Notes under the pieces: generated by a model
Seen by the model: the letters and a program-made list of their open reading frames with translations, nothing else
Databases searched by the model: none
Told to the model about the DNA's origin: nothing
Origin: a virus
Lineage: Duplodnaviria > Caudoviricetes
Length of the DNA: 64,000 bases
Strand: one strand, 5' to 3'
Virus record (IMG/VR): IMGVR_UViG_3300020050_009955
Location: 35,356 to 99,355 of that record
Position numbers and translations under genes: made by a program
Part shown: piece after piece, positions 14,601 through 51,956 of the stretch
Layout: the number at the start of each line of letters is the position of its first letter
Position numbering within the stretch: the stretch's first letter is position 1

Positions 14601-17600
14601 AAGCTCATGTGGAAGTTAGAGGTTTTAATTCTATTAAAACTGTAGATGGAAAACGTTTAGCATCGTTTATTCCTACTTCTACCTTTAGAGAAGTATTGAA
14701 AGATTATAGAAGATATAAAGAAGGAAAAACTTCTAGATTTTTGAATTCAGAATTTTTTGGAGAAAACATATTTTTAAATGGCGTAAACTCTATTAAAGAT
14801 ACTACAACACGTTTCTATGCTTTAGAAAGTGGGAGATATATTTATAATGCTACTGGGCTATCAGCAGCTAAAAAAGTTAGTATAGCTTTTAATGACGCTT
14901 TTATTTCATCTATAGCAAATACTGATGTTTATTTCCAAATGATATACCAACAAGGAGAAGCTACTAAACCAGAAATGCCACAAGTATCATTCCTTAAATA
15001 TGAAGGAATAGAAAAAGCTTTAGACTCTATGTTAAAACAACTTTTGGTTTTGGATACAGATCAAGTTGCTCAGAAAAAATATCAGAAAGAACATAGGCTG
15101 AATTTCTCGTTATATGAAAATGCTAAAAAGGATTTAGGTAAAGAAGATTCTTCTTTAAGTGATGCTAATTATAGAAAACAATTAGTAGATCATATGATTA
15201 AGCAATTATTTTCTAGAGCTCAAGAAATGAGAAAAGGTCTAAAGTCATCTCAGATTCCATTAACAGGAAATCTAAGAAAAGCATACACTAAGGTAAAAGC
15301 TTCTTATGTTGATAGTAGAAGTAATACAGCATTAGCTTCAGTATTAGATTTTACACAATTGGCGGAAAATTTGGATGACTACTATCCGCATAGTACTAGC
15401 TTTAAAGATAGAATCTACCCCGATGATAATGAATTAGACTTAATTTTATTTAGTTTTGTAGCTAATAATTATGTTAACTCTTTTGGTTTAAGTCAATTAG
15501 CTTATGGGGATTTTAATATGTATGGAGATATTGAAACTCTAGTTAAGAGAGCTCAGATGAGTGCATCTCCTGGATATCTTCCATTAATACATTCAAAATA
15601 TGGTGTAGAGAGGTATGCTAATATCTTAATGGGTACGGATGTCGAAACACCTGGTTCTGAGTATATGAAATTATTAGGAAATTTTAATTTATCTGCAAGG
15701 GAAATAGAAGAAATTAGAGATCAATTACGTGATGGAGATAAATTCGATTCTATAGAGAGAACAGATGGTGTAGTATTTGTGACTCCAAGATACTTTGCAA
15801 AATTACAAAAATCTTTTGGATCTGGATTGAACTTAAGGAATGTAATGAAAGACCAAGCTTTTGGCTGGTCTGAAGAAATTATCGCAGATAAAGAACATTA
15901 CTTTGCAACTAAAGAGGAATTATATAAATATCTTAAAGAGACAAAGGGTTTAGAGAAACCTATTCAAAATACACACTATATAGAAGAACTTGCTGAAGGA
16001 TATAAAGATGTTATATCTGGCTATTATCCAACAAAAGTTAAGATGCAACCAGTTGGATTAAAGAATGCTATGGTTGTTCTAGATGAGGCATTTATTCAGC
16101 AGAATAGTGCAAGTAGAGAACAATTAACTAAGCTTAAAAAATTATTAGATACTGCAGAAGTCAATGGTAAAAACATAGATATGCTAGTATTTAAATCATC
16201 TAATAAAGTAGGAGCAGAATCTACTCATAATATATTTGATAATGATGGAAAATTAATAGAAAATTCTGAGCAAAATATCGAAGATTCTATCATTAAGTTG
16301 GATATGTCTTTGTTTAAAATCCAATACAATCCGCATTCAGAAGATACTACAACAGCAGTACCTAGACAATTATTACATTTTGCTAATACTATTGTAGATT
16401 CACCTAATAGTCCCGAAGCGCAAGAGTTGTATTCAACTTTAGCATCTATACAAAATCTTTCTTATTTAAATAAATTTGGTTCTTATGATTTAGATATGTC
16501 TACTATACGTGGAATGTTTGAATCTACAGTGCAAAAAGGAGATGAGAATTTTGTTATCCTTTCTGGTATAAGTGCTGGGTTACCATTAGATCACCCATCT
16601 TTAGCAGTTAAGGCTATATCATCTTTAGGATCTACTTTAAACTCTATAGCTTCTAGAATTAGAGTGCCTGGAGGGAAATTGATACTAAGATCAGATATAG
16701 GTTATGAATTAAAGGATGGAAAAACAAAAAGAAAATTAACTATAGGGACTAGTGAACTAGGAACTCCTTATGCAGAAGCTGTTATTCCTGCACATTTCTT
16801 AACATCTGCGCAAAAAGACGCTATAGCTTCAGGTAAACCTTTATTTATAATACCAGAGATGTTTGGATTTAGAATACCTTCTGGAGATATGAATGCAGGA
16901 TTAATGATAAAGGTTGTTGATTTCTATGAAACTGAAGGTAGATCTAATATTGCAATACTTCCAGATTTAGAAATCTTTAAACAAGGTTGGGATTTTGATG
17001 TGGATGCTCTATTTTTACTAAACTTTGCAGAGCTAGATAAAGATTATTCTATAGGAAAATTAAATCTCACCAAAGGTTCTCTACCTGGATTTGAATTATC
17101 TAAAGATGGTAAATCTGTTTATAATATTCTAAATGGTGACAGCTTCGAAGAATTTGAAAAAGACTTAATAGCTGAAGTTAAAAGTGCTAATAATAGAATA
17201 GATAGTATAGAAAATAAATTACAAAGCTTTAAAACAGCAGAATCTAAAGAATCTTTAGAATATAAAGAATTAAGTAGTAATCTTAGACGTGAAAAGAAAG
17301 CAATAAAAGATTTAAATAAAATTAGAATTACTGCTCTAAAAAACAGATTTGTAAGAGGATTCTTTATGCTATATAATAATCCTAAAAATGCTGGTAGGAT
17401 ATTAGATGTTACTACAACAAAAGTTATTGACAATGCTATAGCTATGTTACGTAAAGACGGTCTATACGACGAAACTCCAAGTATGGATCTATCATTCCTA
17501 GAAGACAATATAGCTCAGTATTTAAATGTAAATGAAGCATCTAAAGCCATAGGTATCTATGCTAAGGGTTCTAGTGTAAATGCATACATAGGACACGCAG

Positions 17601-20600
17601 GTCAATTGGGCACTAACAATAGACCACAAATTGGTGAGGAGATGCAGTTCACTATGAATGGTGTTTTAGTAGATAGGATTGATCCTGTAACATATGCATT
17701 TGGTAAGAAGACTTCTGCTTATACTTTAAATAATAAACTTCTAAATGCATTCTTAGATGCATTAAAAAATCCAAAGATTTTTACAATAGGTTTTAATGGA
17801 GCTAATGCTAATTTAGTAGATTCGGCTCTATCTGTAGGTGGATTGAATTTTGAAGATGTAGTATTGATGTTTAATCACCCTTTAATAAAAGAAGCCTTTA
17901 AGAAAAGATCTTTCAATGATTTAATGAAAGAGGTTGAAAAATCAGTTGTAGACGCTGAAGGTAAGTATAAAGAAAGTTTCTTAAAATTAGCAGTTACAAC
18001 TAATGATTTAAAAGAAGCATATAAAATACATAAAGCAAATTTACTTTCAGAAGTAGCTATAGCTAAAGATGATACTGCAGATGCTACTTTTAAACAGAGT
18101 GATGATGATGCTTTACAAACTTCAGAACAAATACCATCATCTGAAGAAACTACATCAGAAGGATTCAAGCAAGAAGATAATTTAGGACTTGATACAGATG
18201 ATGCACTAACAAAGATGTTACAAGTATTGCTAAAAATACATAAGATATCAGGTCAAAAATTCAAATACATAGCATTAATTAATAATGCACAAGACAAACC
18301 TTCTTCACTTTCTGATATATTTAAATGGGAAACAGACATTAAGAAATTATTTAATGAAGAATTTTTAGAAGATTTAGTAAGCAAAGCAGCAATCTTAGAT
18401 TCTAAGAAAACTGTAGATGATTTATATAAAAATTTAAAAAGTTTAATAGGTGACCTTAGAGAAAAGAATTCTAAGAAAACTATTTTGGCTCCAGATGTAC
18501 AATTTGATACTGAAAAGATCTTAGAAAAAACCCCTCATTTAATTGTATCTCTAATGCAAACGTTGATTCATATAGAAAATTTAAAAAAGAATTTTGCTAT
18601 TCTTTCTCCAAATGCATTAGCTGTTGCAGGTTCATTCTTACCTACTTTAGATGCCCAGAGAGCTGATTCTAATTCCGCAAAAATGTTATCTGTATATACA
18701 TTATCAGACATGCTAATATCTAGTTTTGTTTCTGATTTAATTAATACAAGAGGAGCTACTATTAGTAAATATAATTCTAAAGAATCTGAATTAAGCAGAA
18801 GATCTTATGAGGGTATTGCAGCATTTAACCATAAATTTGCGCAGAAAATAAAAGCTGTTGAAGAATTAGAATCTAAATTACAGTTAAAGAATAAATACTT
18901 TAGAAAAAATATATTCCTAGAACATATTCTCGTAAATATTGGTAATCTAATTCAAGTAAAAGCTTCTGAAGCATATTCTATAGCAAATTTTGAAAGTGTT
19001 GATTATTTCACAGCATTTAATAATCTATCTAGATATGCATTTGAAGAAGTGTTAGATGAGAATGGAAACTTTGTTGGATATTCAGCTTATGAAGATTTTG
19101 CACAAACTGAATCTTCTTTACAGCAAGATTTTGTAACATATGCCACATTTAAATATGGACTTAGAGCTGCAGGAAATAATTACATAGGGGCTATAGCTCC
19201 TGAATACTTAGCTAAATATACTAAGTTTATAAATAGGATGTATAAAATTTGGTTAACACGTAATCCAGATGTATCTAATCTTAAAGATCTATTTAAAATA
19301 TATGCAGGATTAAAATATTTCAAATCAGTTCCTACTGTAGCTAAGTACACAAAAGATGATACTGGTAATTACGAAACAACTCTTAGAGATAATAAAGATG
19401 GAGTATTCACTACAGCTTTAAAGAACGAGCTAAGAAAAGAATTTGGTAGAGATTTTTATTTTGACCATGCAATTATGTATGATTCTAAAAATGCTACACC
19501 TGATCTCTTTCTAAGACTCAATGATGAGAAGAATATTCAGAAGCAAAAATTTTTAGTGCGAGTAGCTGTACTAAAAGAAGGTGGACAAAAGGCTGTTGCA
19601 TTATATCAAAAGATATCTCATGGTGAAACTTTACTAACACAAAGACCTTATAAAATAGCAGATCACTTTTTAACAGATAAGCCAACTATGAAATTTATAC
19701 CTAGTGTTGGGTATTTCATACATGATGAAACTGTTTTGGATTCTGAAGGAAATCAAGTAGCAAATGAGTTCTCTGTACCTTATAATAAAGAAACACATAA
19801 AGATCATAACTTAGCCCCACAGATTTATGGTACTTATTATGATGATGTTTTAAGACATAATTTATCTCTATTGGAATTAGTTAATTACGAGACTTATAAG
19901 GAAGATAATGTATTAAAATTTAGGGTTGTTCAATCAGATATAGGGTATAGGAATTTTGATGAGAGTACAAATAGGTACACTGATTCTAAGCAAACACAAG
20001 ATGAAATAAATCAAAAGGATGTTAAACTTAGAAGACAATATTTTGCTATGCAAAAAGCTCCTATTGATTATTTTGATATATCAAAAGGATCTAGATATTT
20101 TGGACCTAATAATGTATTAGTACATATGACTAATGAGGTAAATATACCTCTTAACAAACAAGCTAAATTAGCACATTTCTCTAACAGAGATGGTAAACTT
20201 TCTGGAAAGAGGAAGAAATTGTCACAAATGGATTATTCTGAAATAGGAACAACTAATAAGTTAGTAACAGGCAAGAAAGGATTTGGTTTCCCTCTTGTTG
20301 TTAATCAAACAAACGATTCTAAGAATCCTACCAAAGAGTTTAATGCTTCAAAATCTACAATAGTTAAAAGTTTAAGACTACTATTTACTGAAGCAAAAAA
20401 TAATCCTGATAAGATTTTCCAAATGGTATTTAATGATGTAGCAGATGGATCTAAATTGACTCTAGCTGAGTTTGCTTCTTATATTGTAAATGCAAAAGTT
20501 CCAATACCTTCTAACATATTCATGAATCCTAAGCTATATAATGAAGTAAAAAGATTATCTGATATACAAAGAGAAGATAAATTAGTAACCCCTAAAGAGA

Positions 20601-21652
20601 AAGTAGTAGATTTGGCACAACCTATTGATGTAATAATATTAGACAGCACTGTAGCTGAAGAAGCTGAAGAAATTAAAAAGAATTGTGAAGGGTCTGGAGG
20701 ACTTACAGCAGAGTCTGGATTAACAATTGGATTCACTCCAGGATCTAAATGGTCTTTAGTTAAAGATCTTAAAGGTCCTTCACATGCACAAGGTGGTATA
20801 GATTTATCTATTGATAATGGAAAAGTTATGTACTCAGATGGAAATACTAAGTTTCATGCAGCTAATGGATTAGTATTACCAGCAAATACTCCTGATCCTC
20901 TTTTGGGGAATATAGCAAACACAATAAATTTACCAGAAATTGAAATTACGGCTAAAAGAACTTTGTTAGATAATTTAAAAGGAGGTGTTAGAAAGATTAA
21001 AAATAATGTAACTAATACAATAAATAAAATTCCAAATTATTTGATGGATGCTGTAGAACAAACAAAGAACTTTGTAACTCATCCAAAAGTTCCTCAAAGC
21101 AATGTGGGATATTATATGAAGGAATATTCATCTTTAGCAGCCGCACCATTAAATGCTAGACTTTTAATTGCGGATATTCTAGGAAATCGTGAACCCATTA
21201 CTGAAAGAGATTTAACTGATCAAGAGTTAGAAGCATTAAGAAATGTAGCTAATACAGCTATGAAAAAAGGACATTCATACATAAAATACCCTGATTACAG
21301 TTCTGGAAATAGTAATATAAAACAAGCAAATAATCCAGAAAGTAGATTACAGTTTTTAAAAAATCAATTTGATCCAGAATATAGAATAAAAACTGCTATA
21401 GGTCAAGCAAACATAGAAATTAATGATAAAGACACTTTCGTAGTAGATAAATATAATTTTAATGATGCTGGAAAAAAATCTTTAAAAGAGATTTTAGCTA
21501 TACAAAATGGTAGTCCTTATAGTGCTGTAAGAGGTCTTGCATCTTTGATGGGATCACCTAAGGGAGAAGGAGCACCAATTAAAATTAAATTAAATAAGAA
21601 AAAACAGAAATCTATACCATTGCAAAATAGATGGGATTTAATAACTGATTAA
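2690..21652 (+). CDS. Giant virion-packaged RNA polymerase polyprotein (6320 aa) with SF1 helicase, zincin, L,D-transpeptidase and macro-like domains
   Basis: Double-psi-barrel RNAP motifs: TDG (~15761), FRIPS (~16870) and GWDFDVDALF (16985-17014). Also Walker A SGVLGSGKST, VVDEA, VGDMSQ, YTSIGRAK, HEVIH and H..(x)..SWGC. Confidence 0.9.
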   Translation: MIDTTPLIPNTPIPYSGEPRKQYTPGPEVQRNNEQLARQIQHPTFGDIYTRDVSGTPYKDFKSYDTNISPYSNQAFLRGENQKWYEQAVNGTLNMIPSTILKVVGTGASLAGGFGGLLSGKGFIKGASENAASQSLREIEDYFKNEILPVHGTRAYFEGNAVSRLGTTSWLFNDFADGVSFMASAYLTGLGIQGILGKMGSITKGLQQFGLTAASEKNIASFAAKQLIKFKDASGLATKHLATGFVNTVFEASAEAHDSREQIETYYNAKIQAAESSGDTQLVKQLEHEKEINADSAMASTFLFNAALLGFTNTLLEAKWFLNKAESSNTALKNELLAKGVRDQSDEALEGLINSAKEGIKKPNYLREFGKGVFNEAYIEENYQAAVQNRFFNKYSQTQDEKDNSIFSNMGYDLGSIILQSAKNAKGFTKDVLALPFHALGLDTSGFETKTGSAEDEAAQAMFAAVGISGPMAMKAAHSEYIQDLEAVGEVSQEVKNLVNIVKLSGEHLIENVRQPLRKFTNTSVDADGKANTEETIVNPVTGKHEFDPVEFAKGNKRGANVLDKHKKAVQAVMAEDEEALSIISDQVTNEWGYDLFSLSQGRITDDELQIILDNHPAFQNKDLQQLGLDNIIADRKDTLKKSVETLKKLSSKYEIMSDFIPQADLSKLTDEEREIEINKRFDKSLDRSIRNDVMRTEFFVNYNKDAVLKADDTLQAYKDDTAIDEEVLKNMTPEQGGRYLDLIDYNQALADLAKGDKSITKQIITKQLTRSSKFQRDYLDILKRHNKVSEDLKEAKTEKEKAELSQKSKELQEEFDQKKYLKEEEEKIEGWEAITSSLQVGDSKISVPHYSVSDSIERKVGARRLYNGNLKTSIRANTAGKLVAKDVLDARLTPILNEIKTGPITGQRLAEIVQELSDLVTNVSSVSLGSPVLLQILEKLRKDYLLSEEAIISANKDLKNIIVGDNGPVDTSIVGELETLIELIDGGQGEEVAGFLDDEDSPLHNLFNLVDKQRNNSNASPELKKAIVDTYQQFIIDTANKFLEGPELAAILATDLNSNEDVFKRIVSFVVDIDNSESLVKLREFVSEYFDKNGSNNSQAIEQLKQLINTKAPKSRIQDDLNAVKEIKRNPDEFNISEAYKSLTSIAQELIPIFAELTDIALLYTGDDRIKVAQNHTVKDTNINNYTDLEKVFQAIYDLKNAKKVFENRKDISDEFRTKMLDKINTQLTLLNIIEERVQANVYKSDLQNQLYLDHKTFGLLSAFGIMTKNSDVDPENAVVKLFQEILKDTDINVVDELTRHRDSKSLSALMGFISLAQTKANPEQIKEINTLLDNFAEGLQLEILSKHANLFRGKESVPGTFAEFAKNPSKKARSFFLHTFFMFDGRKIKDNKVQEDKLNAYKQDPKSGFFQITEHNNFLEALKIANEDVKRGLISEVEYDNLKIFVNQILRPLQGIEALKNNLNSKYSYATLQEEVFKISGQKNLNLSQQQFAAMMDSLLFLLSDNNSNVDQLGYAAVLSGVLGSGKSTLVGLLTNIHAKLTGKDSVKHVLGTAHVDVASENINKHIDSTSTQNKTVGQLTSDDLKDTEILVVDEAFAMSNDQIDSLHLLIKEINALRTSNKIKVLFVGDMSQNRLDQDHILASDTFTRDNGVIKSAQALTIISPLATIYRTSIDAIASTLFKFKDSIEDIAAVDTKSTITSLQEYTNQALGIVQVNSEALPQFLAARDTTRSALVIVNSSEEVGKFIASLTQFTQKSLKELNIEVKSYYDVQSLTRDEAYILLDKTKPGHHGQMFTNKTFNSAMYTSIGRAKQFVGISGNSVIVNSEKQELDDAISIGEIIKQKLKDATTNFENGFIYAMGKYFDKAVTKNTTKEKEAEKTEETDVVPIDIDKDDKEDLDEDNNPIPDQPEDEDYTNPDGTSNDIITEIGSKTDSSLSARLNNTNNAAIKRVLKGRTSTDGVDAIVVKREKVLPTGGTQIMYSIMVPDISGNYHEVAVLDTEELNGTFVSLINDNIPVLDVFREGLRESDLAPHQVGRFKLSYLSNGKYDNTGEEKNTNLSDLVIQWAKGFYGDNWKDSPLFNKDGSIDWSKFQTSVITRKLYDQLKLSERGFSAGILGATILRIKEYNPKAPKSLDQFIILNTQQAHLSKGWYNKTVAPIQKFYAATKAVEDILVAEPFVTANVNDYNLYLGDSKLRFNTDLLDAFAREAYTYGDVALRKNSLEILRNILSGDALKFNMKNISDEQLLKLQDALHELVGLAYIKKSKQLVIPNTPEAIKELEDTYGKGYTFDLTTHPTHNKKPNTKFIIVKVLNENNEPIKFLVQSHSLGNSEVQKAFKNFSRNAGDRKFKGHTLNVTHTYTKEGRNGLEVEKVSSPKTLVSLRRGSKNGKTGQSSIGWYGLMKARFRWMISEHPNGTRYAENVQDKQALSTLRKEFNRIIDTEFNGKGKYIGGNDELIERLSRDFPEEMNHVLDSLYDESTVPVTSTLLQAISEIAENTPIYLDPQQKVNPDGSVSEGEPTPLRINMDAGIGSRVMTDSKTRDFVESATTNRFINYTPGGVELELKEKPNDGETLKSASLKRVNANINNEEAVYKKVSYNPNVDTIVEQHIKVIADMVKDHLGSINFFVDEKQGDVLGGVTYFRDIDNNPVVLFGKETIGLSLFYHEVIHALTQQVILKDDKDCTEKELLFKKRISNIFNLFKDNLKDYSDLSIEDILGSTWSDLDEHEFIANLTNTKLVEILQQMKVQDIKSKNLFQAILDAILNLFGLTEKDNPDLYELTLKSLSDLITKDAANSGPDVIIAPVPIDVIPLPSEKKPWKARTKQETEISNLEYKIRALDIADDSATKEIERLEEANKQLEGIIPEIQEALDNVKKKLKEKKESKTPVVGEQNQSPITVQPDEQFLSNVVESQVSIDDIENIADEEDIDESEVVDRIKQEVRNSIDNLIPAKPLGKTLQRIITKILNSLFSFALVVTTMFGNLPGLNAYDYRDKVITTESISSQFIESKIKNSEVYQQLTEDGKIILINQAKLKSDKPFILVDKPTATAYIFNKDGVLQKSFPVVLGAAIGDSANQADVNSTRPGKYATTPAGRYNLKYGGGSEEDYINYHNKAYYLTDSKTGKLAKNGVSLHIVYQGELEKRTKALNTPTPNDNRLSWGCVNVDEKIWDESIAPIVDSGLDVIITRDFQTTPFLSFSNDTSTTNRIDGRVANIISDLELNKASLDYEYSERALETLLDRARKVMTDNRDIIKKYQDKINSNAKERTSLLKELKKLKKNLEPQVEEPKQTPKQRVDSFSLKARKYISEHGWSMEPSELIRFNEFLEKVEKFKVPGMAVKYIEKVLPTFNTTNKLFHLNFSTTLGADSQSTSPDSTFLKVANQGLMSLTKEFGGSVALLNEALFQTRKSVYEAMNGNTLTGLADPISFQKAKGIAYKNLSEDAGNMVQQFLITLENSGPLINSLNIDSIQKAVRVFEEKRQALSLLDEGTDLYNDTETIVETLNNIILQYRTPILALEKMANDKSIFFKLLNQVFNNWTVFELTPEDEQTEKDQANLANEIQNNEEVNIIESFSTEVKNFLSLIPIRDENDRIVSFVMPKTAITFLAELLHDDIDLYSVESTRQLRVSLVTMQRNGIIDKSKKAILDKLIQTIERFNLSQNEVVTRDKQGRETGRKIENILPKTTTIFIDYFGDHLDAINIPVYLIQAVDPADSLDLTGMSHKEAVYEYGDRVTVTKYADMETLLKANPEANQDLLKKMYYIHQAYNDLTNIKVYLGSLMNVNYIQGSEDSYSTGYGEERILDRKSSLTRVSGSNILNKSKNQLANLLIDIFSGSAFRMNGKVVTVNKSNVRDVFSGLINKLSTDPQSGVLELLKILNSANLLNFDDSVKSTIAYNELIKNIATSFVELYNKVLDDKEVLNRIFELNNSEDKLNETQIDQRRELNALFYRDVKFDALAVSFRQLAKAHVEVRGFNSIKTVDGKRLASFIPTSTFREVLKDYRRYKEGKTSRFLNSEFFGENIFLNGVNSIKDTTTRFYALESGRYIYNATGLSAAKKVSIAFNDAFISSIANTDVYFQMIYQQGEATKPEMPQVSFLKYEGIEKALDSMLKQLLVLDTDQVAQKKYQKEHRLNFSLYENAKKDLGKEDSSLSDANYRKQLVDHMIKQLFSRAQEMRKGLKSSQIPLTGNLRKAYTKVKASYVDSRSNTALASVLDFTQLAENLDDYYPHSTSFKDRIYPDDNELDLILFSFVANNYVNSFGLSQLAYGDFNMYGDIETLVKRAQMSASPGYLPLIHSKYGVERYANILMGTDVETPGSEYMKLLGNFNLSAREIEEIRDQLRDGDKFDSIERTDGVVFVTPRYFAKLQKSFGSGLNLRNVMKDQAFGWSEEIIADKEHYFATKEELYKYLKETKGLEKPIQNTHYIEELAEGYKDVISGYYPTKVKMQPVGLKNAMVVLDEAFIQQNSASREQLTKLKKLLDTAEVNGKNIDMLVFKSSNKVGAESTHNIFDNDGKLIENSEQNIEDSIIKLDMSLFKIQYNPHSEDTTTAVPRQLLHFANTIVDSPNSPEAQELYSTLASIQNLSYLNKFGSYDLDMSTIRGMFESTVQKGDENFVILSGISAGLPLDHPSLAVKAISSLGSTLNSIASRIRVPGGKLILRSDIGYELKDGKTKRKLTIGTSELGTPYAEAVIPAHFLTSAQKDAIASGKPLFIIPEMFGFRIPSGDMNAGLMIKVVDFYETEGRSNIAILPDLEIFKQGWDFDVDALFLLNFAELDKDYSIGKLNLTKGSLPGFELSKDGKSVYNILNGDSFEEFEKDLIAEVKSANNRIDSIENKLQSFKTAESKESLEYKELSSNLRREKKAIKDLNKIRITALKNRFVRGFFMLYNNPKNAGRILDVTTTKVIDNAIAMLRKDGLYDETPSMDLSFLEDNIAQYLNVNEASKAIGIYAKGSSVNAYIGHAGQLGTNNRPQIGEEMQFTMNGVLVDRIDPVTYAFGKKTSAYTLNNKLLNAFLDALKNPKIFTIGFNGANANLVDSALSVGGLNFEDVVLMFNHPLIKEAFKKRSFNDLMKEVEKSVVDAEGKYKESFLKLAVTTNDLKEAYKIHKANLLSEVAIAKDDTADATFKQSDDDALQTSEQIPSSEETTSEGFKQEDNLGLDTDDALTKMLQVLLKIHKISGQKFKYIALINNAQDKPSSLSDIFKWETDIKKLFNEEFLEDLVSKAAILDSKKTVDDLYKNLKSLIGDLREKNSKKTILAPDVQFDTEKILEKTPHLIVSLMQTLIHIENLKKNFAILSPNALAVAGSFLPTLDAQRADSNSAKMLSVYTLSDMLISSFVSDLINTRGATISKYNSKESELSRRSYEGIAAFNHKFAQKIKAVEELESKLQLKNKYFRKNIFLEHILVNIGNLIQVKASEAYSIANFESVDYFTAFNNLSRYAFEEVLDENGNFVGYSAYEDFAQTESSLQQDFVTYATFKYGLRAAGNNYIGAIAPEYLAKYTKFINRMYKIWLTRNPDVSNLKDLFKIYAGLKYFKSVPTVAKYTKDDTGNYETTLRDNKDGVFTTALKNELRKEFGRDFYFDHAIMYDSKNATPDLFLRLNDEKNIQKQKFLVRVAVLKEGGQKAVALYQKISHGETLLTQRPYKIADHFLTDKPTMKFIPSVGYFIHDETVLDSEGNQVANEFSVPYNKETHKDHNLAPQIYGTYYDDVLRHNLSLLELVNYETYKEDNVLKFRVVQSDIGYRNFDESTNRYTDSKQTQDEINQKDVKLRRQYFAMQKAPIDYFDISKGSRYFGPNNVLVHMTNEVNIPLNKQAKLAHFSNRDGKLSGKRKKLSQMDYSEIGTTNKLVTGKKGFGFPLVVNQTNDSKNPTKEFNASKSTIVKSLRLLFTEAKNNPDKIFQMVFNDVADGSKLTLAEFASYIVNAKVPIPSNIFMNPKLYNEVKRLSDIQREDKLVTPKEKVVDLAQPIDVIILDSTVAEEAEEIKKNCEGSGGLTAESGLTIGFTPGSKWSLVKDLKGPSHAQGGIDLSIDNGKVMYSDGNTKFHAANGLVLPANTPDPLLGNIANTINLPEIEITAKRTLLDNLKGGVRKIKNNVTNTINKIPNYLMDAVEQTKNFVTHPKVPQSNVGYYMKEYSSLAAAPLNARLLIADILGNREPITERDLTDQELEALRNVANTAMKKGHSYIKYPDYSSGNSNIKQANNPESRLQFLKNQFDPEYRIKTAIGQANIEINDKDTFVVDKYNFNDAGKKSLKEILAIQNGSPYSAVRGLASLMGSPKGEGAPIKIKLNKKKQKSIPLQNRWDLITD

Positions 21653-35329: not shown

Positions 35330-37156
35330 CTAATATTCGAGTATTCTCGAATGTTTAAAGTTATCTACCATCATCAGGATTTGCGATGAGGAGAATCTAG
35401 ATTTTAATATGTGCCAATATATCATGGCTTGTTGTGGATCTTTAGGATTAAAAACAGGTAATCCATAAACATATTCTGATCCTCGTGGTGGCCCATAATA
35501 GACACCTATTCCTTCTATTACTGCCGGTTTATGAGTGACAATAACGTAGTCCGAACAATAGTAGGCAGCACTAGATGCGAATAGGTCATTCTTATTAGGA
35601 TACTGTAACATAGGATTTGTAATTCTTTCCGATTTTTCAATATCTCGGTTGAGCTGGGATAATACTATAAAGATACACTTTAAATTGATAGTCTCAAAAT
35701 ATTTTTTTAATTGTATTAGAGTCTTATAAAGTTTATCTATTATTTGTTTCTCAGCATCTTCATTAACAGCTCCTTTAACAAGCAAACTATGGTCGAAAGT
35801 ACATACAAAACCTTTTCCTTTGGAAGCTAGTTGATTTTCTTGTACAAAGTTTAAAATCGTACTGACTATCTCTTCCACAGTGCCTACATCATCTACGATG
35901 TATATAGGATAATATTTCATTTTGTCCGCCTCTGTGCTTATTTTGGTGTACTGTGCATCTGTTAATTTAGATCCCGCAGAATACAATTCTTTTGTAGACA
36001 ATTCAACCTTAGACGATATGTCTCTAGCTACTTGATCTACACCTAGCATTTCCATCTCGAAAGATAAGATATCAAATTCCTGATCCTTGTTATAGTCCAC
36101 TATATCACGTTTGATCTGAGAGAGCATTAAGCTCTTTCCTGAGTTATGTACTACGATTCCATTAGCAATAAAATTATTGTAAGGAGCATTACACATAATA
36201 TCATATGTTTCTTCTACTCCACACGATTCAATTGATATAATTTTATCGTATTCAATAGTATACATATTATTCCTTAGTATTAAATGCTCTAGAGCATGTT
36301 CTTTCTTTGAAAGCAACTCTAAGTTATCAATAGAATTATTAGAAGTATTTCCATCTTTATGGTGAATTTCCATAGAACTATCTGAAAATATAAGATTTGA
36401 AGGATTATTAATACATTCTATTAGAAAGTCCTTTATATTTGTAAAACCGTTTAAATAGGCATCATACACAGCACGTTGTTCTAAACATTCTGCATAAACA
36501 TTATTATTTATAATTTTTAATCGAGCATTCGGATAATTAAAAAACTTTCCTGTAATACTTTTTCTATAATGACTCTTTTTAGGTTTTATTTTACTTTTGA
36601 ATCTAGATACTAAAAGATCTCCAATATGTAAATCAGATAGTGATTTATAGTGTTCTTCTGATTTATTTCCTATATGTGTTAAAAATTTATGATCTTTAGT
36701 AGCCTTTATTTTTTTACCAGATTCTGTAGTAATTTCAAATACTTCCTTCTTTCCGCTAAAAATAACAGCATTAATTTGTGTTTTCCCAATTGTATTTAAA
36801 TCTTCTTTATAACATTTGATATAAGATGGAATTTTTTTATTCCATTTACCATTTCCAGTAAATAAAAGATTATATTTTTCATATAATTCTTTTATCGTAT
36901 ACTTTCTAGAACTACTTCTTTTTCCTCTATTAACTTCAATAATAGTATCTGCAGATAGACATCCTGATAATCCGGCAATGGTTATAATTCTATTCCACTC
37001 CAAGCCTTCAAATAGGGCATCATTTAGTTTTTTAAACGAAGTTTTTAAAGAGGGTGCTTCACCCTTCATTCTTTTCTTTATAAATACTTTAGCATCATCT
37101 ATTTTTTTAGAATAATGAGCCACTGGTAAACTCGGCTTAAATGAATTCTTTTCCAT
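35330..37156 (-). CDS. dnaB: DnaB-like replicative helicase with an intein
   Basis: IAGLSG|SGKS Walker A after intein removal, SFEM, DH, SQLNR, DL..S and ILKSR motifs. Confidence 0.9.
   Translation of the reverse strand: MEKNSFKPSLPVAHYSKKIDDAKVFIKKRMKGEAPSLKTSFKKLNDALFEGLEWNRIITIAGLSGCLSADTIIEVNRGKRSSSRKYTIKELYEKYNLLFTGNGKWNKKIPSYIKCYKEDLNTIGKTQINAVIFSGKKEVFEITTESGKKIKATKDHKFLTHIGNKSEEHYKSLSDLHIGDLLVSRFKSKIKPKKSHYRKSITGKFFNYPNARLKIINNNVYAECLEQRAVYDAYLNGFTNIKDFLIECINNPSNLIFSDSSMEIHHKDGNTSNNSIDNLELLSKKEHALEHLILRNNMYTIEYDKIISIESCGVEETYDIMCNAPYNNFIANGIVVHNSGKSLMLSQIKRDIVDYNKDQEFDILSFEMEMLGVDQVARDISSKVELSTKELYSAGSKLTDAQYTKISTEADKMKYYPIYIVDDVGTVEEIVSTILNFVQENQLASKGKGFVCTFDHSLLVKGAVNEDAEKQIIDKLYKTLIQLKKYFETINLKCIFIVLSQLNRDIEKSERITNPMLQYPNKNDLFASSAAYYCSDYVIVTHKPAVIEGIGVYYGPPRGSEYVYGLPVFNPKDPQQAMIYWHILKSRFSSSQILMMVDNFKHSRILEY
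36143..36961 (-). mobile_element. Intein (273 aa) with an HNH endonuclease, inserted in the DnaB P-loop
   Basis: Starts CLSADT, has block B ATKDHKF, ends YDI...NFIANGIVVHN and is followed by Ser. Internal EIHHKDGNTSNNSIDNLELL..EH. Confidence 0.93.
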
Positions 37157-38750: not shown

Positions 38751-39939
38751 GCTTAATAGAATTTACCCATTGTGAAGAAATATTTTTAGTACGATTAGTA
38801 ACCCAAATCATTTCTTGTGTATTATCACAAGCTAGATTTATCATTACAGGTGTTTTACCTTCTTTGTATCTGTTAATACGTCCTATCATTTGTATACCAA
38901 CTAATTCTGTTGAAACCCCAGATGCACATATTGCAGCATCCAAGTCTGGTAAGTTATATCCTACATTTAAAGCTTCAGCAGATACTAAAACTTTATACTT
39001 AGGGTCTGAAATAGTGGCTAAAACTGCAGCCCTATCGTTATCTTTCATATTAGAGTGGTACGCTAGTGTAAGAATACCTTCAGAATTCAGCATTTGTGCT
39101 AAATCTTCTACAAATTTAATTTCTTTTGAAAATACTATCCATTTTTTATCTGGAAACTTTTTTATTAAATCAATGCATACTTTCTTTTTAGATTCTGCTC
39201 TATAGCAAACCCATTTACGCATAGACATTGATGACCAGTAAGCTTTTCCTACTTTGTGTAATGGATGATTAACCGCTCTAGAAGCATCTGCAGCTAAATC
39301 AAATACATCCATATCTTGATATAGAGTATTATTTTTAATTGTTTGTGCTAATTCGATTCTAGCTTTCTCAAACATCTTATTATATATAACGTATCTTGCA
39401 CGTTCTCCAGCATTAAGTTTAACTTTTAAATTAAACACTTGGAAAGCAGGAACAATTTCTTGTGCTACACATTCAGCTAGAGATATACTAAAGAATACTG
39501 GAAGACGTTCTAATAGAACATCTAAATGATGTTCGTTATGCTCTGGTAGAGTTGCTGTTAAGCCTAACATATAGTCACAAGGAATATCTAAAACTTTCCC
39601 ATGAACATCAGATAAAGCCATATGGACTTCATCTATAATAATAAGATCATAATGATCTTCAAATTTATATGCAGTTTGTTTGCATTCAATTGTAATATTT
39701 AACTTTCCTAAGCCGAGTAATTTAATTTCAGCTGGCCAACTATCATCTTTAAGAACCGTAGTAGGAGTAACTATTAAGCAAGACTTAATATCTTTAGACT
39801 TAAATAAGTTTTCAGCAATCTGTAAAGCTACTCTAGTCTTACCAACTCCTGTTGGAAGCACAATAGTACTCCTACTAGGTTTCTCTTTAATGTATTTGGT
39901 AATAATTTTTTCTTGTAATTCGGATTTCTTATCCATCAT
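38734..39939 (-). CDS. Superfamily 2 (DEAD/H-like) helicase; likely start at MMDKK, 39939
   Basis: PTGVGKT, DEVH, GLTAT, VGYNLPDL and QMIGRINR. Confidence 0.9.
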   Translation of the reverse strand: MMDKKSELQEKIITKYIKEKPSRSTIVLPTGVGKTRVALQIAENLFKSKDIKSCLIVTPTTVLKDDSWPAEIKLLGLGKLNITIECKQTAYKFEDHYDLIIIDEVHMALSDVHGKVLDIPCDYMLGLTATLPEHNEHHLDVLLERLPVFFSISLAECVAQEIVPAFQVFNLKVKLNAGERARYVIYNKMFEKARIELAQTIKNNTLYQDMDVFDLAADASRAVNHPLHKVGKAYWSSMSMRKWVCYRAESKKKVCIDLIKKFPDKKWIVFSKEIKFVEDLAQMLNSEGILTLAYHSNMKDNDRAAVLATISDPKYKVLVSAEALNVGYNLPDLDAAICASGVSTELVGIQMIGRINRYKEGKTPVMINLACDNTQEMIWVTNRTKNISSQWVNSIKHDFIT

Positions 39940-40708
39940 AGTCATTAATACATGTATCGCATATACCCATTTCAATGTGAGCGAAATTAGAGTTACATAC
40001 AGTACATATAGTATATTCGGATTCGTGTTCTTCACAAATACCATTTGCATTTGCAGTATTATGACATCGAGGAATTATACATTCTGGCGGCCTATTTCTA
40101 GCAGCACAATTTTCACAATATCCTCTAAAATCTGTGTAAATTTTCATACAAATATCCCCACAATTAGTACAGATAACTGATTCTTTACAAATATCACATT
40201 CTGCAGAGTTGTCATCGCTATAAAAGAAACTACCACATTTTACACATCTTTTTGTACAAAGCCTGCATGTAGATTGTTCTGGAGAACTTGGTAAAAATAT
40301 CTCCTGACAAGATTCACAAGTATCCAAATCAGTTTGATTTGCATTGCAACAATCTTCACAAATTGTTCTACCATTAAATGGTACTTGTAACGTGTATTTT
40401 ACACCACAATTATCACAAGTATGCAAATCTTCTTGTTTTTGTAAATCTAAATTTCTTTTAAAGGCTAAACAATCTTCACATAATAGTGAACCTTTGTATT
40501 CATGTAAAGATTCGTAAGGATAATGAACAGATTTGCTACAATTATCACAAACTTTTGAGCAAGTTTCACACACTTCTCCAGCTATTGGTACTATTGAAGT
40601 ATGACATATAGGACATCTAAATTTAGGACAATCCGGACTTGTACATTTACCGATAGTATGAGATTCGCAATTGTCACCCAATTCACAATGGAAACTGGGT
40701 GTCGTTAG
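39929..40708 (-). CDS. Poly-CxxC zinc-ribbon domain, probably translated as a -1 frameshift extension of the upstream membrane protein
   Basis: More than 15 CxxC pairs. The frame opens at the GGGAAAC slippery site and has no N-terminal ATG, only an internal TTG at 40681. Confidence 0.75.
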   Translation of the reverse strand, partial: LTTPSFHCELGDNCESHTIGKCTSPDCPKFRCPICHTSIVPIAGEVCETCSKVCDNCSKSVHYPYESLHEYKGSLLCEDCLAFKRNLDLQKQEDLHTCDNCGVKYTLQVPFNGRTICEDCCNANQTDLDTCESCQEIFLPSSPEQSTCRLCTKRCVKCGSFFYSDDNSAECDICKESVICTNCGDICMKIYTDFRGYCENCAARNRPPECIIPRCHNTANANGICEEHESEYTICTVCNSNFAHIEMGICDTCINDYDG

Positions 40709-40714
40709 TTTCCC
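40670..40714 (-). other. Predicted -1 programmed ribosomal frameshift signal
   Basis: G_GGA_AAC directly before the TAA, a 6-nt spacer, then a 10-bp stem-loop CACCCAGTTT/GAATTGGGTG. Confidence 0.75.
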
Positions 40715-41754
40715 ACTTCAGCTATCTTTGGTAAAGTAAGACCAAAACCTTCACCATTTCTAGTCGAAGCTGCAAATAGGTTATAAATCTTCTTACGCAA
40801 TTCTATTTTCTCTGCTTTTTTAGCGTCTGCAGCAAGTTTATAAGAAGTCCTATCAAATTCTTCAATCTTTTCAACCATTGCTGCAATATTAGAACTTAAA
40901 CGAGCTTTTGCTCCAGTTTCTAATGCATTGTGAATATTGTGTGCAGCTGTAATTTTAGACTTCTCTACATCTTCAGCTAAAGAACCATTTGAGTATCTCT
41001 TGACAAGCTTTGTAATAGGATCTTTACTATCCTTAGAATTATCGTTCTTATTTTTATCTCCTTTATCTTCTTTCTTATCTTCTTTTTTAGCTTCTTTCTT
41101 ATTGTAAATTATAAAAGCTCCATCCAGTACAACTAGAAAATAGTGAGCAAATGTTACATAGATTGAAGTAATCATAGGGTATTGCATAGCACCAGACGGT
41201 GAGAACATTGGCGATAACCCTATACTTTGATAATATGACGACATGTCATTAAATGGATTTAAATCCAAGATGTATAAACTTAATAATTGAGTCTGTTTTA
41301 GACCATTTGCAATTAGCAATACATTTATATATGGTAGCGCGATTGTTCCGAATACTGCCATAATAAATATAAACAAGGTAGCTGCTCGCTTTTTATTCTC
41401 TTTAGCAAATAAATCTGCAAAGAATGTTGGTAACATCAAACCACAAGTTATGGCAGCAATTGCTATAACCATATGGGACAATATCCTAGCTAGAGGATTC
41501 ACTTGTACTTCTCCTGAAGGAGTAATTGAAGCAGCCATAAGAGCTTCAGCAAAATTTATTATAAAACAAGTTATAATAAATACAGAAACTTTCTCTCTAA
41601 GAAACAAGTTATTCACTATGTCTCCGAAAGTAAGTTCTGGATTCTTTTTTATTAGTGTTCTAGCCCACCATATAACGCCAAGTAGCATAGCTAAACCTAG
41701 CATGATGATAGTGGAATAACTGGTCACTACACCTTGAACATCTTGATTATCCAT
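40705..41754 (-). CDS. Multi-pass membrane protein (about 5 TM segments) with a charged C-terminal domain
   Basis: Several 20-aa hydrophobic stretches, then a KKEDKK linker and a helical tail. Confidence 0.75.
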   Translation of the reverse strand: MDNQDVQGVVTSYSTIIMLGLAMLLGVIWWARTLIKKNPELTFGDIVNNLFLREKVSVFIITCFIINFAEALMAASITPSGEVQVNPLARILSHMVIAIAAITCGLMLPTFFADLFAKENKKRAATLFIFIMAVFGTIALPYINVLLIANGLKQTQLLSLYILDLNPFNDMSSYYQSIGLSPMFSPSGAMQYPMITSIYVTFAHYFLVVLDGAFIIYNKKEAKKEDKKEDKGDKNKNDNSKDSKDPITKLVKRYSNGSLAEDVEKSKITAAHNIHNALETGAKARLSSNIAAMVEKIEEFDRTSYKLAADAKKAEKIELRKKIYNLFAASTRNGEGFGLTLPKIAEVGN

Positions 41755-41762
41755 TGTGAATG

Positions 41763-43721
41763 TTATTTAATTAAAAATTCAGAAATTTTTGGTACTGCAG
41801 TCATAGGCAGTTTTTTTACGAATACTTTTCCAGCATTCTCCATAGAGCGCTTTAATATTTTAGAAACTCTATTACTAATAGAAATGTCACACTCAACATT
41901 TATTTCATCATGGACTATATTGACGATATATGCTCTATTTGACCAGCCTAGTTTTTCCATTTCTTTGTCAAATAATACGGCAGCCAATTTTGTCATAGAA
42001 CCACCAGTCCCTTGTATTCTAAAGTTTTGTGCATCTCTTTCATACCCACCTTTTAACTTAAAATAAGTACTCCACACTTTAGACGGAATCTTATACGACG
42101 GGTGAAGAAGTAAAGAATTATTTATAAATTGCTCTACATTTTTAAATTCATTGTAATCTTGTAAATATGATCTTCTTTTTGTTACACTATCTATTAAATG
42201 ATACCCTTTAGATAATGCAAACTTTTGTTGTTTTTCAAAATATAGTTTAAGAGCAGGATATGATGTGAAAAACATATTAATCCACTCTTGAGCTTGTTTC
42301 ATAGAAACTTGTGCAGAGTCTGAAATTTTATGAGCAGATGCGCCGTAAGCTATTGCAAAATTTAACATCTTAGCAATAGGTCTATTTTGTGATGTTACTT
42401 CACCAAACATTTTTACAGCAGTGAAGCTATGGAAATCCCCATCACCATTTATAACAAAATCTATCATACTTTCTTCATTAGCATATTCTGCTAATATACG
42501 ACTTTCTTGTGAAGAATAATCACAAACGATAAATGTTTTGTTTTTCTCTGCTACAAAGCATGCTCTAAACTCTTCAGTTGCAGGAATATTCTGCATATTA
42601 GGATCAGAAGAAGATACTCTACCAGTGTTGAGTATTTGATAAATATCAGTATGAACTCTTTTAGATATAGGATTAACATTCGTTAAGAACTTAAATCCGT
42701 ATGTGTTTACTGCAGTTTGTAATTTTTTGTAAGATAGATAGATAGGTAAAATATCGTATTTAGATTTATACTTACCTACATGTGCTTTACCTACAGTATT
42801 TTTATACACAATTTCTTGACCTATAGAATTCTTTTTATCAATAATCTGAATTGGTATATCTAATTCTTTAAACAAAGGTACGATTTGTTTGGAACTATTC
42901 CAATTAATTCCTAAGTAATGTTCTAAATTATTATCAATTAAATAACGGTTTAGTTGGTATTCTGTATCTGCTAATTGTTTTTTATTTTTGGCTAATAAAT
43001 CTAGCCATTTTTGAGGATCTAATTTGATACCTCTTAATTCCCATCTAGCTACAACCTTAGTAAAATTGTTTTCAAGGCTAACTGTTTTAGTTAGTTGATT
43101 TTCTTTAACTTTCTTTAATATCTTAGGATATGCTAATGACGGTATAACAACGTCTGCAGCAGAATACTTAATTAACTCTAAAGTAAGATCATCATAAGCA
43201 AGCTTTTCATAATCTTTTACCGTATTCTTTGATACATAATTTTCGAATAAGCTTAATTGCTTCGAATTTAAATTTAAATTTAGATATTTTTCTGAGATGG
43301 CTGCTAATGACCACGAAGCTTTTAAACCACAATTCAACACAGCTTCAGCTAAACCTATATCATATATATTTTCTAATTCTACACCTAAATGATGTTTAAT
43401 CATTTTAAAATCAAACTTAAGATTTACTCCTAGTTTAATAATAGATTTAGAAGTTAGAATTTTAGATATAAGTCCTATGTTAACATATCTAGTATCTATT
43501 ACGAACTGTTGATTCTCATCACCAATCTGTAATGATATTAGCATAGAAGTATACGGATCTAAACCAGATCCTATTCCTACATATAGTGGATGTACCGAGG
43601 TCTCAGTATCTACAGTAACTACCTTACATTTTCTAAGATAAGAATATGCTTGATTAATTGTAACATTTTCTACACCTTCTACTGAATAAGGAGCTATTAA
43701 TTTTATTTTGGATAAATCCAT
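41763..43721 (-). CDS. polA: DNA polymerase family A with a 3'-5' exonuclease domain
   Basis: VDTET, NLKFD, YSAADV, TGRVSS.DPNMQNIP, DYSSQESR, K..NFAIAYG, NFRIQG and VHDEI. Confidence 0.95.
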   Translation of the reverse strand: MDLSKIKLIAPYSVEGVENVTINQAYSYLRKCKVVTVDTETSVHPLYVGIGSGLDPYTSMLISLQIGDENQQFVIDTRYVNIGLISKILTSKSIIKLGVNLKFDFKMIKHHLGVELENIYDIGLAEAVLNCGLKASWSLAAISEKYLNLNLNSKQLSLFENYVSKNTVKDYEKLAYDDLTLELIKYSAADVVIPSLAYPKILKKVKENQLTKTVSLENNFTKVVARWELRGIKLDPQKWLDLLAKNKKQLADTEYQLNRYLIDNNLEHYLGINWNSSKQIVPLFKELDIPIQIIDKKNSIGQEIVYKNTVGKAHVGKYKSKYDILPIYLSYKKLQTAVNTYGFKFLTNVNPISKRVHTDIYQILNTGRVSSSDPNMQNIPATEEFRACFVAEKNKTFIVCDYSSQESRILAEYANEESMIDFVINGDGDFHSFTAVKMFGEVTSQNRPIAKMLNFAIAYGASAHKISDSAQVSMKQAQEWINMFFTSYPALKLYFEKQQKFALSKGYHLIDSVTKRRSYLQDYNEFKNVEQFINNSLLLHPSYKIPSKVWSTYFKLKGGYERDAQNFRIQGTGGSMTKLAAVLFDKEMEKLGWSNRAYIVNIVHDEINVECDISISNRVSKILKRSMENAGKVFVKKLPMTAVPKISEFLIK

Positions 43722-51185: not shown

Positions 51186-51588
51186 TAGTTTTGTTTTCGA
51201 GTAAACAAACAGGGATAAAAAGATAAGTATAATTATATACAATTTTAGCCCAAATATCTGGAGAATCTGTTATTTCTCCTTTATAATCTTCAGCCTTTTG
51301 AGTTCTCATATTTGGCATTTTATGAAAAGAAACTATCTCGCCAGATATAGGCGGATTAGCATTATCAATAGTTCCAAATATCAAATTTCTAGGAATCGTA
51401 AACAGCGTTTTTCTGTCTGTTATTGTTTCGGCAATATCTTTCCTATAATTTCTTAAGGTATATGCCCAATAATACGAGGTTTTGTTTAACGCATGTTGTG
51501 TTAATCTCCCACTTTTTGGGTTTTCTGGATCCTTAGCTGTAGAAATTCTATAAGGTCTTATAAGTTTTACTGTATCTCCTATTTTCAT
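51175..51588 (-). CDS. Hypothetical protein (MKIGDTVK, SH3/KOW-like start)
   Basis: ORF track. Confidence 0.55.
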   Translation of the reverse strand: MKIGDTVKLIRPYRISTAKDPENPKSGRLTQHALNKTSYYWAYTLRNYRKDIAETITDRKTLFTIPRNLIFGTIDNANPPISGEIVSFHKMPNMRTQKAEDYKGEITDSPDIWAKIVYNYTYLFIPVCLLENKTNGR

Positions 51589-51956
51589 TATAATTCTTTT
51601 AAAGTTTCTATAGGCAAGTAGCCATAAACACTATGCCCATTTACTATGACTACTACTTTGGCGTATAATCCGACTTCATCAAAGTCAGCACCTTCGTAAG
51701 TTTTAAATTTTGTAATTTTCTGTTCGTGGGTTTGTTCTAATAGGTCTATACATTCTACCAATTCCACTAAATAGAACGGACCATCCAAAGTTTTAGAATC
51801 TGCTGGAAGATAACAGAACCAAGTTCTTGGCAATTCGTCTTTAGTGCTAATTTGCCACACTAAATCATACTTACCTAATACAGAATCAATTAAACATTCG
51901 GCATGAGCTATTGCGTATTCTTTAGCTAATGTAACAGTTTTCATGTAAAGATACAT
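51588..51956 (-). CDS. Hypothetical protein
   Basis: ORF track; coupled TAATG junction. Confidence 0.55.
   Translation of the reverse strand: MYLYMKTVTLAKEYAIAHAECLIDSVLGKYDLVWQISTKDELPRTWFCYLPADSKTLDGPFYLVELVECIDLLEQTHEQKITKFKTYEGADFDEVGLYAKVVVIVNGHSVYGYLPIETLKEL

Follow-up and report, generated by a model that had tools for sequence, protein, structure and literature searches.

A probable programmed -1 ribosomal frameshift joins a membrane protein to a zinc-finger array in a phage replication module

In phage lambda, the tail-chaperone genes G and GT are linked by a ribosomal frameshift on the heptamer G_GGA_AAG (Xu, Hendrix and Duda 2004, cited in PMC5009743), and comparable sites are described in Burkholderia phage KL1, whose tail genes gp18/gp19 have a predicted shift site GGGAAAC directly ahead of the stop (PMC3483164), and in the g-t genes of the haloarchaeal tailed viruses HCTV-1, -2, and -5 (PMC5009743). 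In the E. coli dnaX gene, a -1 frameshift accounts for the products tau and gamma, with the shift there shortening the product (PMC5009743). Here we describe a cassette on the minus strand of a 64,000-nt stretch (the window) of the virus record IMGVR_UViG_3300020050_009955 (99,355 bp, 97% complete), in which a membrane-protein gene is very probably joined by a programmed -1 ribosomal frameshift to a Cys-rich open reading frame (ORF) resembling a zinc-finger array. E. coli copA likewise contains a -1 frameshift within a membrane-protein gene, however the shift in copA terminates translation early to give the shorter product CopA(Z), in contrast to the 260-residue extension of the cassette. To our knowledge, tail-chaperone genes and some capsid genes account for nearly all of the conserved programmed frameshifts known in tailed phages, and a literature search found no paper describing a frameshift in the present gene family, which is not proof of absence.

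The cassette resembles lambda G/GT in that a short ORF carries an X_XXY_YYZ heptamer close to its 3' end, where a -1 slip would yield a short and a C-terminally extended product from one start, and in that the site is kept across divergent homologues with a variable heptamer sequence and no universally conserved stimulator. Unlike G/GT, it lies in a replication module (polA/helicase) and not upstream of a tape-measure gene, and its upstream part is an integral membrane protein with a zinc-finger array as the extension. Located between PolA and an SF2 helicase, with neither of its ORFs matching any family in PHROGs or Pfam, it does not group with the tail assembly chaperones. Phage KL1 shares the layout of GGGAAAC followed by the stop, however its genes are tail genes and its site is itself predicted only, while the HCTV viruses use the same set of heptamers as the cassette family, but in tail chaperone genes and in archaeal hosts. 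The dnaX gene is, as here, a non-structural replication gene, however the cassette family does not conserve the upstream Shine-Dalgarno (SD)-like element or the strong hairpin on which dnaX relies.

The membrane-protein gene (40705..41754, minus strand, 349 aa in the 0 frame) ends ...GAA GTG GGA AAC TAA, placing the slippery heptamer G_GGA_AAC (40708..40714, minus strand) in X_XXY_YYZ phase directly ahead of the TAA (40705..40707, minus strand) that would end the short isoform. The -1 frame contains a TGA two codons before GGG and is thereafter open for 261 codons, from GGG to the TAA at 39931..39929 (ORF 39929..40714, minus strand). The first in-frame ATG of this ORF lies ~188 codons in, and early on only the TTG at 40681..40679 (minus strand) resembles a start codon; ORF callers take it as the start of a 250-aa protein. 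The ORF encodes 37 Cys residues, arranged in 14 strict CxxC and 2 CxxH pairs (16 together) and several Cx3-5C pairs, with one Cys preceding the TTG, which is itself two codons past the invariant first Cys. These readings agree with a preliminary description of the DNA, which had placed the heptamer in phase directly before the stop, the opening of the -1 frame at the heptamer with a TGA just upstream and no early ATG, and one Cys ahead of the annotated TTG; its figure of more than 15 CxxC pairs is roughly right by the count given here.

The window shows no enrichment of GGGAAAC (7 copies versus 3.7 expected), and heptamers of the form XXXYYYZ stand in phase at 0.96% of codons in the 54 ATG-started window ORFs of at least 100 aa found in our own scan. 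A heptamer abutting the stop and followed by a long (260-codon) open -1 frame lacking a start occurs in one of these 54, the membrane ORF alone. Two others carry near-terminal heptamers, followed in one by a 50-codon frame and in the other by a gene with its own ATG. At 51588..51956 (minus strand), an in-phase T_TTA_AAA stands two codons ahead of a stop, and 141 codons of the -1 frame are open; it was rejected as a frameshift candidate because an ATG that overlaps the stop starts the downstream gene, an arrangement of ordinary coupling.

The relatives of the cassette (loci coded L001-L031) were examined at the DNA level in 14 lineages, consisting of the window lineage and 13 relatives, with the DNA of ten added as family representatives. 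Two near-identical records, L001 (a 63-kb IMG/VR contig, 98% identical) and L014 (an ENA contig, 99% identical), have the same junction as the window, and the recurrence of this junction in independent assemblies excludes an assembly error. Seven further lineages, with membrane-protein identities of 37-84%, combine an in-phase X_XXA_AAZ heptamer with a homologous Cys-rich -1 ORF that lacks a conserved start. Three of these were traced through the two parts of the cassette, with Cys-rich homologues at 73% and 40% identity leading to contigs L003 and L007 respectively, and a membrane-protein homologue at 51% identity leading to L013. Each of these three contigs has a membrane gene closing with xxG GGA AAC and then TAA or TAG, a -1 frame that stays open from this junction onwards, and a -1 product homologous to that of the window from its first residues, the shared pattern being GKL, a variable linker of 4-7 residues, and (H)C-E-x-G-D-x-C-x-S...GKC...DCPKFRCP. 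In the remaining four, a Cys-rich ORF without a start again lies in the -1 frame, and the membrane gene ends in C_CCA_AAC and TAG (L018), A_AAA_AAC and TAA (L019), or A_AAA_AAG and TAG (L026), or carries A_AAA_AAG five codons ahead of the stop (L020). The alignment of homologous loci proposed in the preliminary description supports the shift site, with an in-phase heptamer kept in 8 of the 14 lineages, either as GGGAAAC or exchanged for one of three other sequences (CCCAAAC, AAAAAAC, and AAAAAAG). A stop codon, TAA or TAG, abuts the heptamer in seven of these eight, with L020 as the exception. Alignment of the Cys-rich ORFs from 11 lineages reveals nine invariant Cys residues, the first lying 6-14 residues past the shift site and upstream of the window TTG and of the ATGs called in L003 and L007, with conserved -1 residues beginning 9-10 codons past the shift site.

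Codon usage at the junction points in the same direction. The codon before GGA in the four GGGAAAC lineages is GTG, TCG, ATG, or TTG, encoding Val, Ser, Met, or Leu, such that the residue varies and the third-position G is constant. In the window genome GTG, TCG, TTG, and AAC make up 8%, 5%, 11%, and 19% of their respective synonymous sets, and the heptamer is, to judge from these codons, maintained by rare synonymous choices. The membrane-protein family comprises 183 clusters at 50% identity (profile search), and among one representative of each of the best 150 of these clusters a heptamer-compatible C-terminus, [KGPL][KN], is present in 75, against a background of 7.4% at the preceding 29 positions (p=5e-44). 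The individual dipeptides are KN (22), GN (19), KK (17), GK (7), PN (5), PK (4), and LK (1), with a heptamer present at the DNA level in all 7 of the 7 checked representatives with a compatible dipeptide. On a tree of 108 family members the compatible types are interspersed, requiring 44 parsimony changes, which indicates that slipperiness is maintained with no single sequence being kept. Across these lineages the anatomy of the junction is conserved and evolutionarily maintained.

We consider it highly likely that a programmed -1 ribosomal frameshift of the tandem-slippage X_XXY_YYZ type operates at the end of the membrane-protein gene, as judged from comparison of sequences. In the proposed mechanism, for which we infer the slip itself, its efficiency, and the cytoplasmic location of the tail, most ribosomes would decode GGA AAC and terminate at the TAA, yielding the 349-aa protein with ~5 transmembrane (TM) helices and a cytoplasmic helical C-terminal domain. 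A fraction would slip back one base on G_GGA_AAC, with the tRNAs re-pairing on GGG AAA, and would read VGK-LTTPSF into a 260-residue zinc-binding array of Cys knuckles, giving a membrane-anchored zinc-finger protein of ~608 aa. The likely pause elements are the stop right after the heptamer and, in the window lineage, also a hairpin 6 nt downstream, and the purpose would probably be a fixed ratio of short to long product from one start codon, as with the tail-chaperone pair G/GT. Isoforms of 349 and ~608 aa had been put forward in the preliminary description and gain support from the comparison, through the recurrent heptamer, stop, and start-less -1 ORF, the codon bias, the C-termini, and the unconserved TTG.

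The hairpin of the window (40675..40701, minus strand) follows the heptamer after the 6-nt spacer TAACGA, and consists of a 10-bp stem, including two G-U pairs, and the 7-nt loop CCATTGT, with the TTG codon 40681..40679 lying in its 3' arm. The spacer and stem had already been noticed in the preliminary description, and folding adds that the stability is locally unusual, at -12.3 kcal/mol in a 45-nt segment, among the most stable 0.9% of local segments. A further suggestion, that the loop pairs with the following ACAAT in a pseudoknot, holds as far as the complementarity exists, however the connecting loops spanning the 10-bp stem would then have zero length, and the pseudoknot is rejected as sterically implausible on H-type geometry. 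Hairpins formed by unrelated sequence lie 5 nt past the heptamer in L018 (top 0.3%) and L007 (top 3%), with the hairpin weak in L003 and none at that spacing in L013, L019, L020, and L026; the hairpin of the window is possibly a lineage-specific stimulator. In L013, an SD-like AAGGGAG precedes the heptamer by 2 nt (L013:4040-4070) and has no counterpart in the other lineages, and a TTTCCC able to pair with GGGAAA lies 5 nt downstream; both features are lineage-specific and missing from the window. Many phage frameshift sites have no known stimulator. The stop abutting the heptamer, common to almost all canonical lineages, could itself act as a pause in the manner of the 'shifty stop' concept (PMC5009743).

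A simpler arrangement would be two separate genes, with the zinc-finger protein initiating at TTG 40681 and the heptamer present by coincidence, as is implied by the 250-aa TTG-started protein of the ORF callers and as might be read from the distant homologue L024, in which the Cys-rich ORF has its own ATG. However, L003 and L007 have TAT and TTA respectively in place of the window TTG, L013 lacks it, and the TTG comes after both an invariant Cys and the conserved HCE-GD-C motif. The TTG is rejected as a start because it is unconserved, lies past the invariant Cys, and is buried in the 3' arm of a stable hairpin. The callers themselves pick three different, non-homologous starts in three lineages, with the called ATGs 60 codons in (L003) and 19 codons in (L007) both cutting off conserved Cys residues, and miss the ORF in L023 and L030. 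Together with the conservation of the heptamer at synonymous sites, these observations leave separate initiation at the TTG quite improbable. Coupled expression independent of the heptamer, either by termination-reinitiation at a non-canonical codon or by stop-dependent repositioning, would make the heptamer dispensable, and would suit both the stop at or beside the junction in nearly all lineages and the four lineages (L022, L023, L030, and L031) that keep Cys-rich -1 ORFs with neither heptamer nor start. It would, however, leave the enrichment of X_XXA_AAZ and its maintenance at synonymous sites unexplained, and would have to proceed in the window and L013, where the stretch from the point at which the -1 frame opens to the first invariant Cys contains no ATG, GTG, TTG, or AUN codon, while the near-canonical G_GGG_GAA of L031 indicates that its acidic-tail subgroup may use non-canonical slippage. 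We regard such coupling as improbable.

The abutment of the two ORFs without a spacer is also what a frameshift mutation would leave behind, and the cassette might be a single membrane-zinc-finger gene split by a 1-nt assembly error or mutation. The junction is, however, the same in three independent records, the out-of-frame arrangement recurs in lineages as distant as 37% identity, the two ORFs are each intact and conserved, and no fused form of ~600 aa occurs among the best 150 of the 183 membrane-protein clusters, nearly all of which are 283-441 aa long, with three shorter fragments. A search for zinc-finger homologues of at least 598 aa, limited to that length, likewise found none, which is weak evidence. 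A broken gene is highly improbable on these grounds, and we attach as little weight to transcriptional slippage, in which RNA polymerase would itself produce -1 mRNAs. The A6 runs of L019, L020, and L026 would favour polymerase slippage, however productive slippage needs runs of ~8-9 or longer, the window, L003, L007, L013, and L018 have A3 only, and the phase-specific X_XXY_YYZ pattern implicates the ribosome over the polymerase.

Several observations weigh against the programmed -1 frameshift preferred here. Six atypical lineages (L022, L023, L024, L025, L030, and L031), five of them selected for odd C-termini, depart from the canonical signal. In the four with acidic tails (L022:1108-1123, L023:3604-3631, L030:1770-1775, and L031:3042-3047), the Cys-rich -1 ORF opens 2-8 codons ahead of the stop and lacks both a canonical heptamer and a start, with the junction reading G_GGG_GAA TAA in L031 and GAG GTG TAA in L030. 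In the distant L024 (L024:1169-1729), the Cys-rich ORF lies in the +1 frame, has an ATG of its own and a 59-nt overlap, and goes with no slippery site, while in L025 (L025:3639-3833) a 64-aa +1 ORF without a start stands beside a TTTT run (GAG TTT TCT), again with no canonical heptamer. The downstream hairpin is not conserved among lineages, and the stem covariation proposed as a check in the preliminary description is absent over the four GGGAAAC lineages, with 70% of cells paired compared with 68% in shuffles, marking the stem as lineage-specific. The lineages are also mutually related, such that probabilities calculated per lineage are non-independent. Finally, in E. coli a heptamer with AAC at its end slips far less readily than one with AAG (PMC5009743).

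It is chiefly the heptamer-less exceptions that keep our confidence in the frameshift from being higher. Together, the acidic-tail lineages, L024, and L025 mean that another route must operate in some lineages, either non-canonical slippage or separate initiation, and the acidic-tail and +1 lineages may use a shift signal so far undescribed. The preliminary description had named homologues with a normal ATG and no slippery site as evidence that would count against it; one distant homologue, L024, is of this kind, set against the lineages in which the heptamer is kept. Fusion by slippage is, as far as the compared loci indicate, the dominant arrangement in the family, and not a universal one.

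The membrane protein is modelled by AlphaFold (AF2; 108 homologues) as all-helical with a mean predicted local distance difference test (pLDDT) score of 92.7, showing ~5 TM helices, a disordered Lys/Asp-rich linker at residues ~228-240, and a helical C-terminal domain with a conserved GxGFGxxLP motif at its end. Hydropathy and the positive-inside charge pattern suggest an N-out/C-in topology, which would make the zinc-finger tail cytoplasmic, a location in which Cys-Zn sites are stable. Four polar residues within the helices, Arg90, His94, Asn144, and His204, are invariant or nearly so, which suggests that they mark a specific site. Fold searches with this model returned no close relative, with Foldseek against the PDB giving E values of at least 0.6 and a wide VIA-align search giving Z scores of at most 10, from generic bundles of helices that fall short of the noise level quoted for helical proteins.

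The -1 product begins with a short flexible linker, followed by ~9 zinc-knuckle or zinc-ribbon modules, and the Cys-rich ORF ranges from 64 to 351 aa across lineages. The AF2 model of the tail is a string of small hairpin/helix knuckles (pLDDT 71, predicted template modelling score 0.27) with residues 1-9 disordered. Profile searches of the PDB with the array found only the generic Cys patterns of FYVE, nuclear-receptor, and GATA domains, at E values of at least 0.003, and Pfam gave no match for the zinc-finger ORF product at E<=0.1, with the zinc-ribbon family DZR_2 (PF18912) appearing as a faint precomputed flag on homologues only. Scores from the ESM Atlas were no higher than 0.87 and uninformative. 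Among annotated phage genomes, megablast with the locus and tblastn with the membrane protein found no match, while scans of IMG/VR found the near-identical contig and L013 only, and a metagenome scan found one short contig, 99% identical.

Gene neighbours confirm the placement of the cassette between polA and the SF2 helicase given in the preliminary description, with the module reading polA, cassette, SF2 helicase, and DnaB-like helicase, and PolA encoded at 41763..43721. Amongst the 13 relative lineages, polA is Pfam-flagged upstream of the cassette in nine, and the SF2 helicase is flagged downstream in six, with L013 added by alignment. The SF2 helicase most likely starts at ATG 39936..39934 (minus strand), with an 8-nt overlap with the zinc-finger stop (ATGGATAA), as in L003, and the mechanically called start at 40050 is probably too far upstream. 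The nearest named relatives of PolA are from the Crassvirales, at 27-30% identity. In crAss001 and IAS virus the cassette is missing from the vicinity of polA, and the structural genes of the window have no PHROG matches. The carriers of the cassette appear to be uncultivated phages of ~100 kb distantly related to the Crassvirales.

Other features of these genomes were noted in passing. The window contains no tRNA genes. A single ORF of 6320 aa at 2690..21652 (plus strand), searched in three segments, has no PHROG match, and is followed by ORFs of 323, 137, and 1345 aa that are likewise unmatched. The DnaB-like helicase ORF at 35330..37156 (minus strand) is 608 aa long with an HNH-endonuclease match at residues ~260-326, whereas the syntenic DnaB_C genes of L003 and L007 encode 333-335 aa, which suggests insertion or fusion of an HNH element (an intein or mobile element). 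In several relatives, polA and the SF2 helicase are split into two or three called pieces (L003:1797-3755, L020:515-2494 and 4617-5828, and L007:5842-7044), which may reflect introns, inteins, or genuinely split genes, while PolA of the window is a single protein of 652 aa.

Membrane-anchored phage proteins that organise replication at the membrane are exemplified by p16.7 and p1 of phi29. The likeness of the cassette to these proteins is a functional analogy only, with no similarity of sequence or fold detected and no frameshift in p16.7 or p1, and anchoring of replication to the membrane, raised in the preliminary description, is a guess by this analogy. We offer as a tentative proposal, for which we would give somewhat less than even odds, that the cassette represents a second broadly conserved family of phage recoding with a breadth like that of tail-chaperone G/GT, producing, across a large clade of uncultivated, crAss-related phages of ~100 kb, a membrane protein of the replication module in fixed ratio with a membrane-tethered zinc-ribbon array, made by frameshift extension, that could anchor or scaffold phage DNA or the replisome at the membrane.

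Current annotation of these loci is wrong, with callers truncating the zinc-finger ORF at unrelated internal starts or missing it, and the cassette provides a way into an abundant and uncharacterised family of proteins, whose predicted fold is confident and unmatched. The hosts of the phages carrying it probably lack SD-based stimulation of frameshifting, and the interchange of GGGAAAC, CCCAAAC, AAAAAAC, and AAAAAAG, together with the heptamer-less exceptions, forms a natural series for the study of slippery-site evolution. If true, a family-wide shift site in a membrane protein of the replication module would extend phage recoding to a new functional class.

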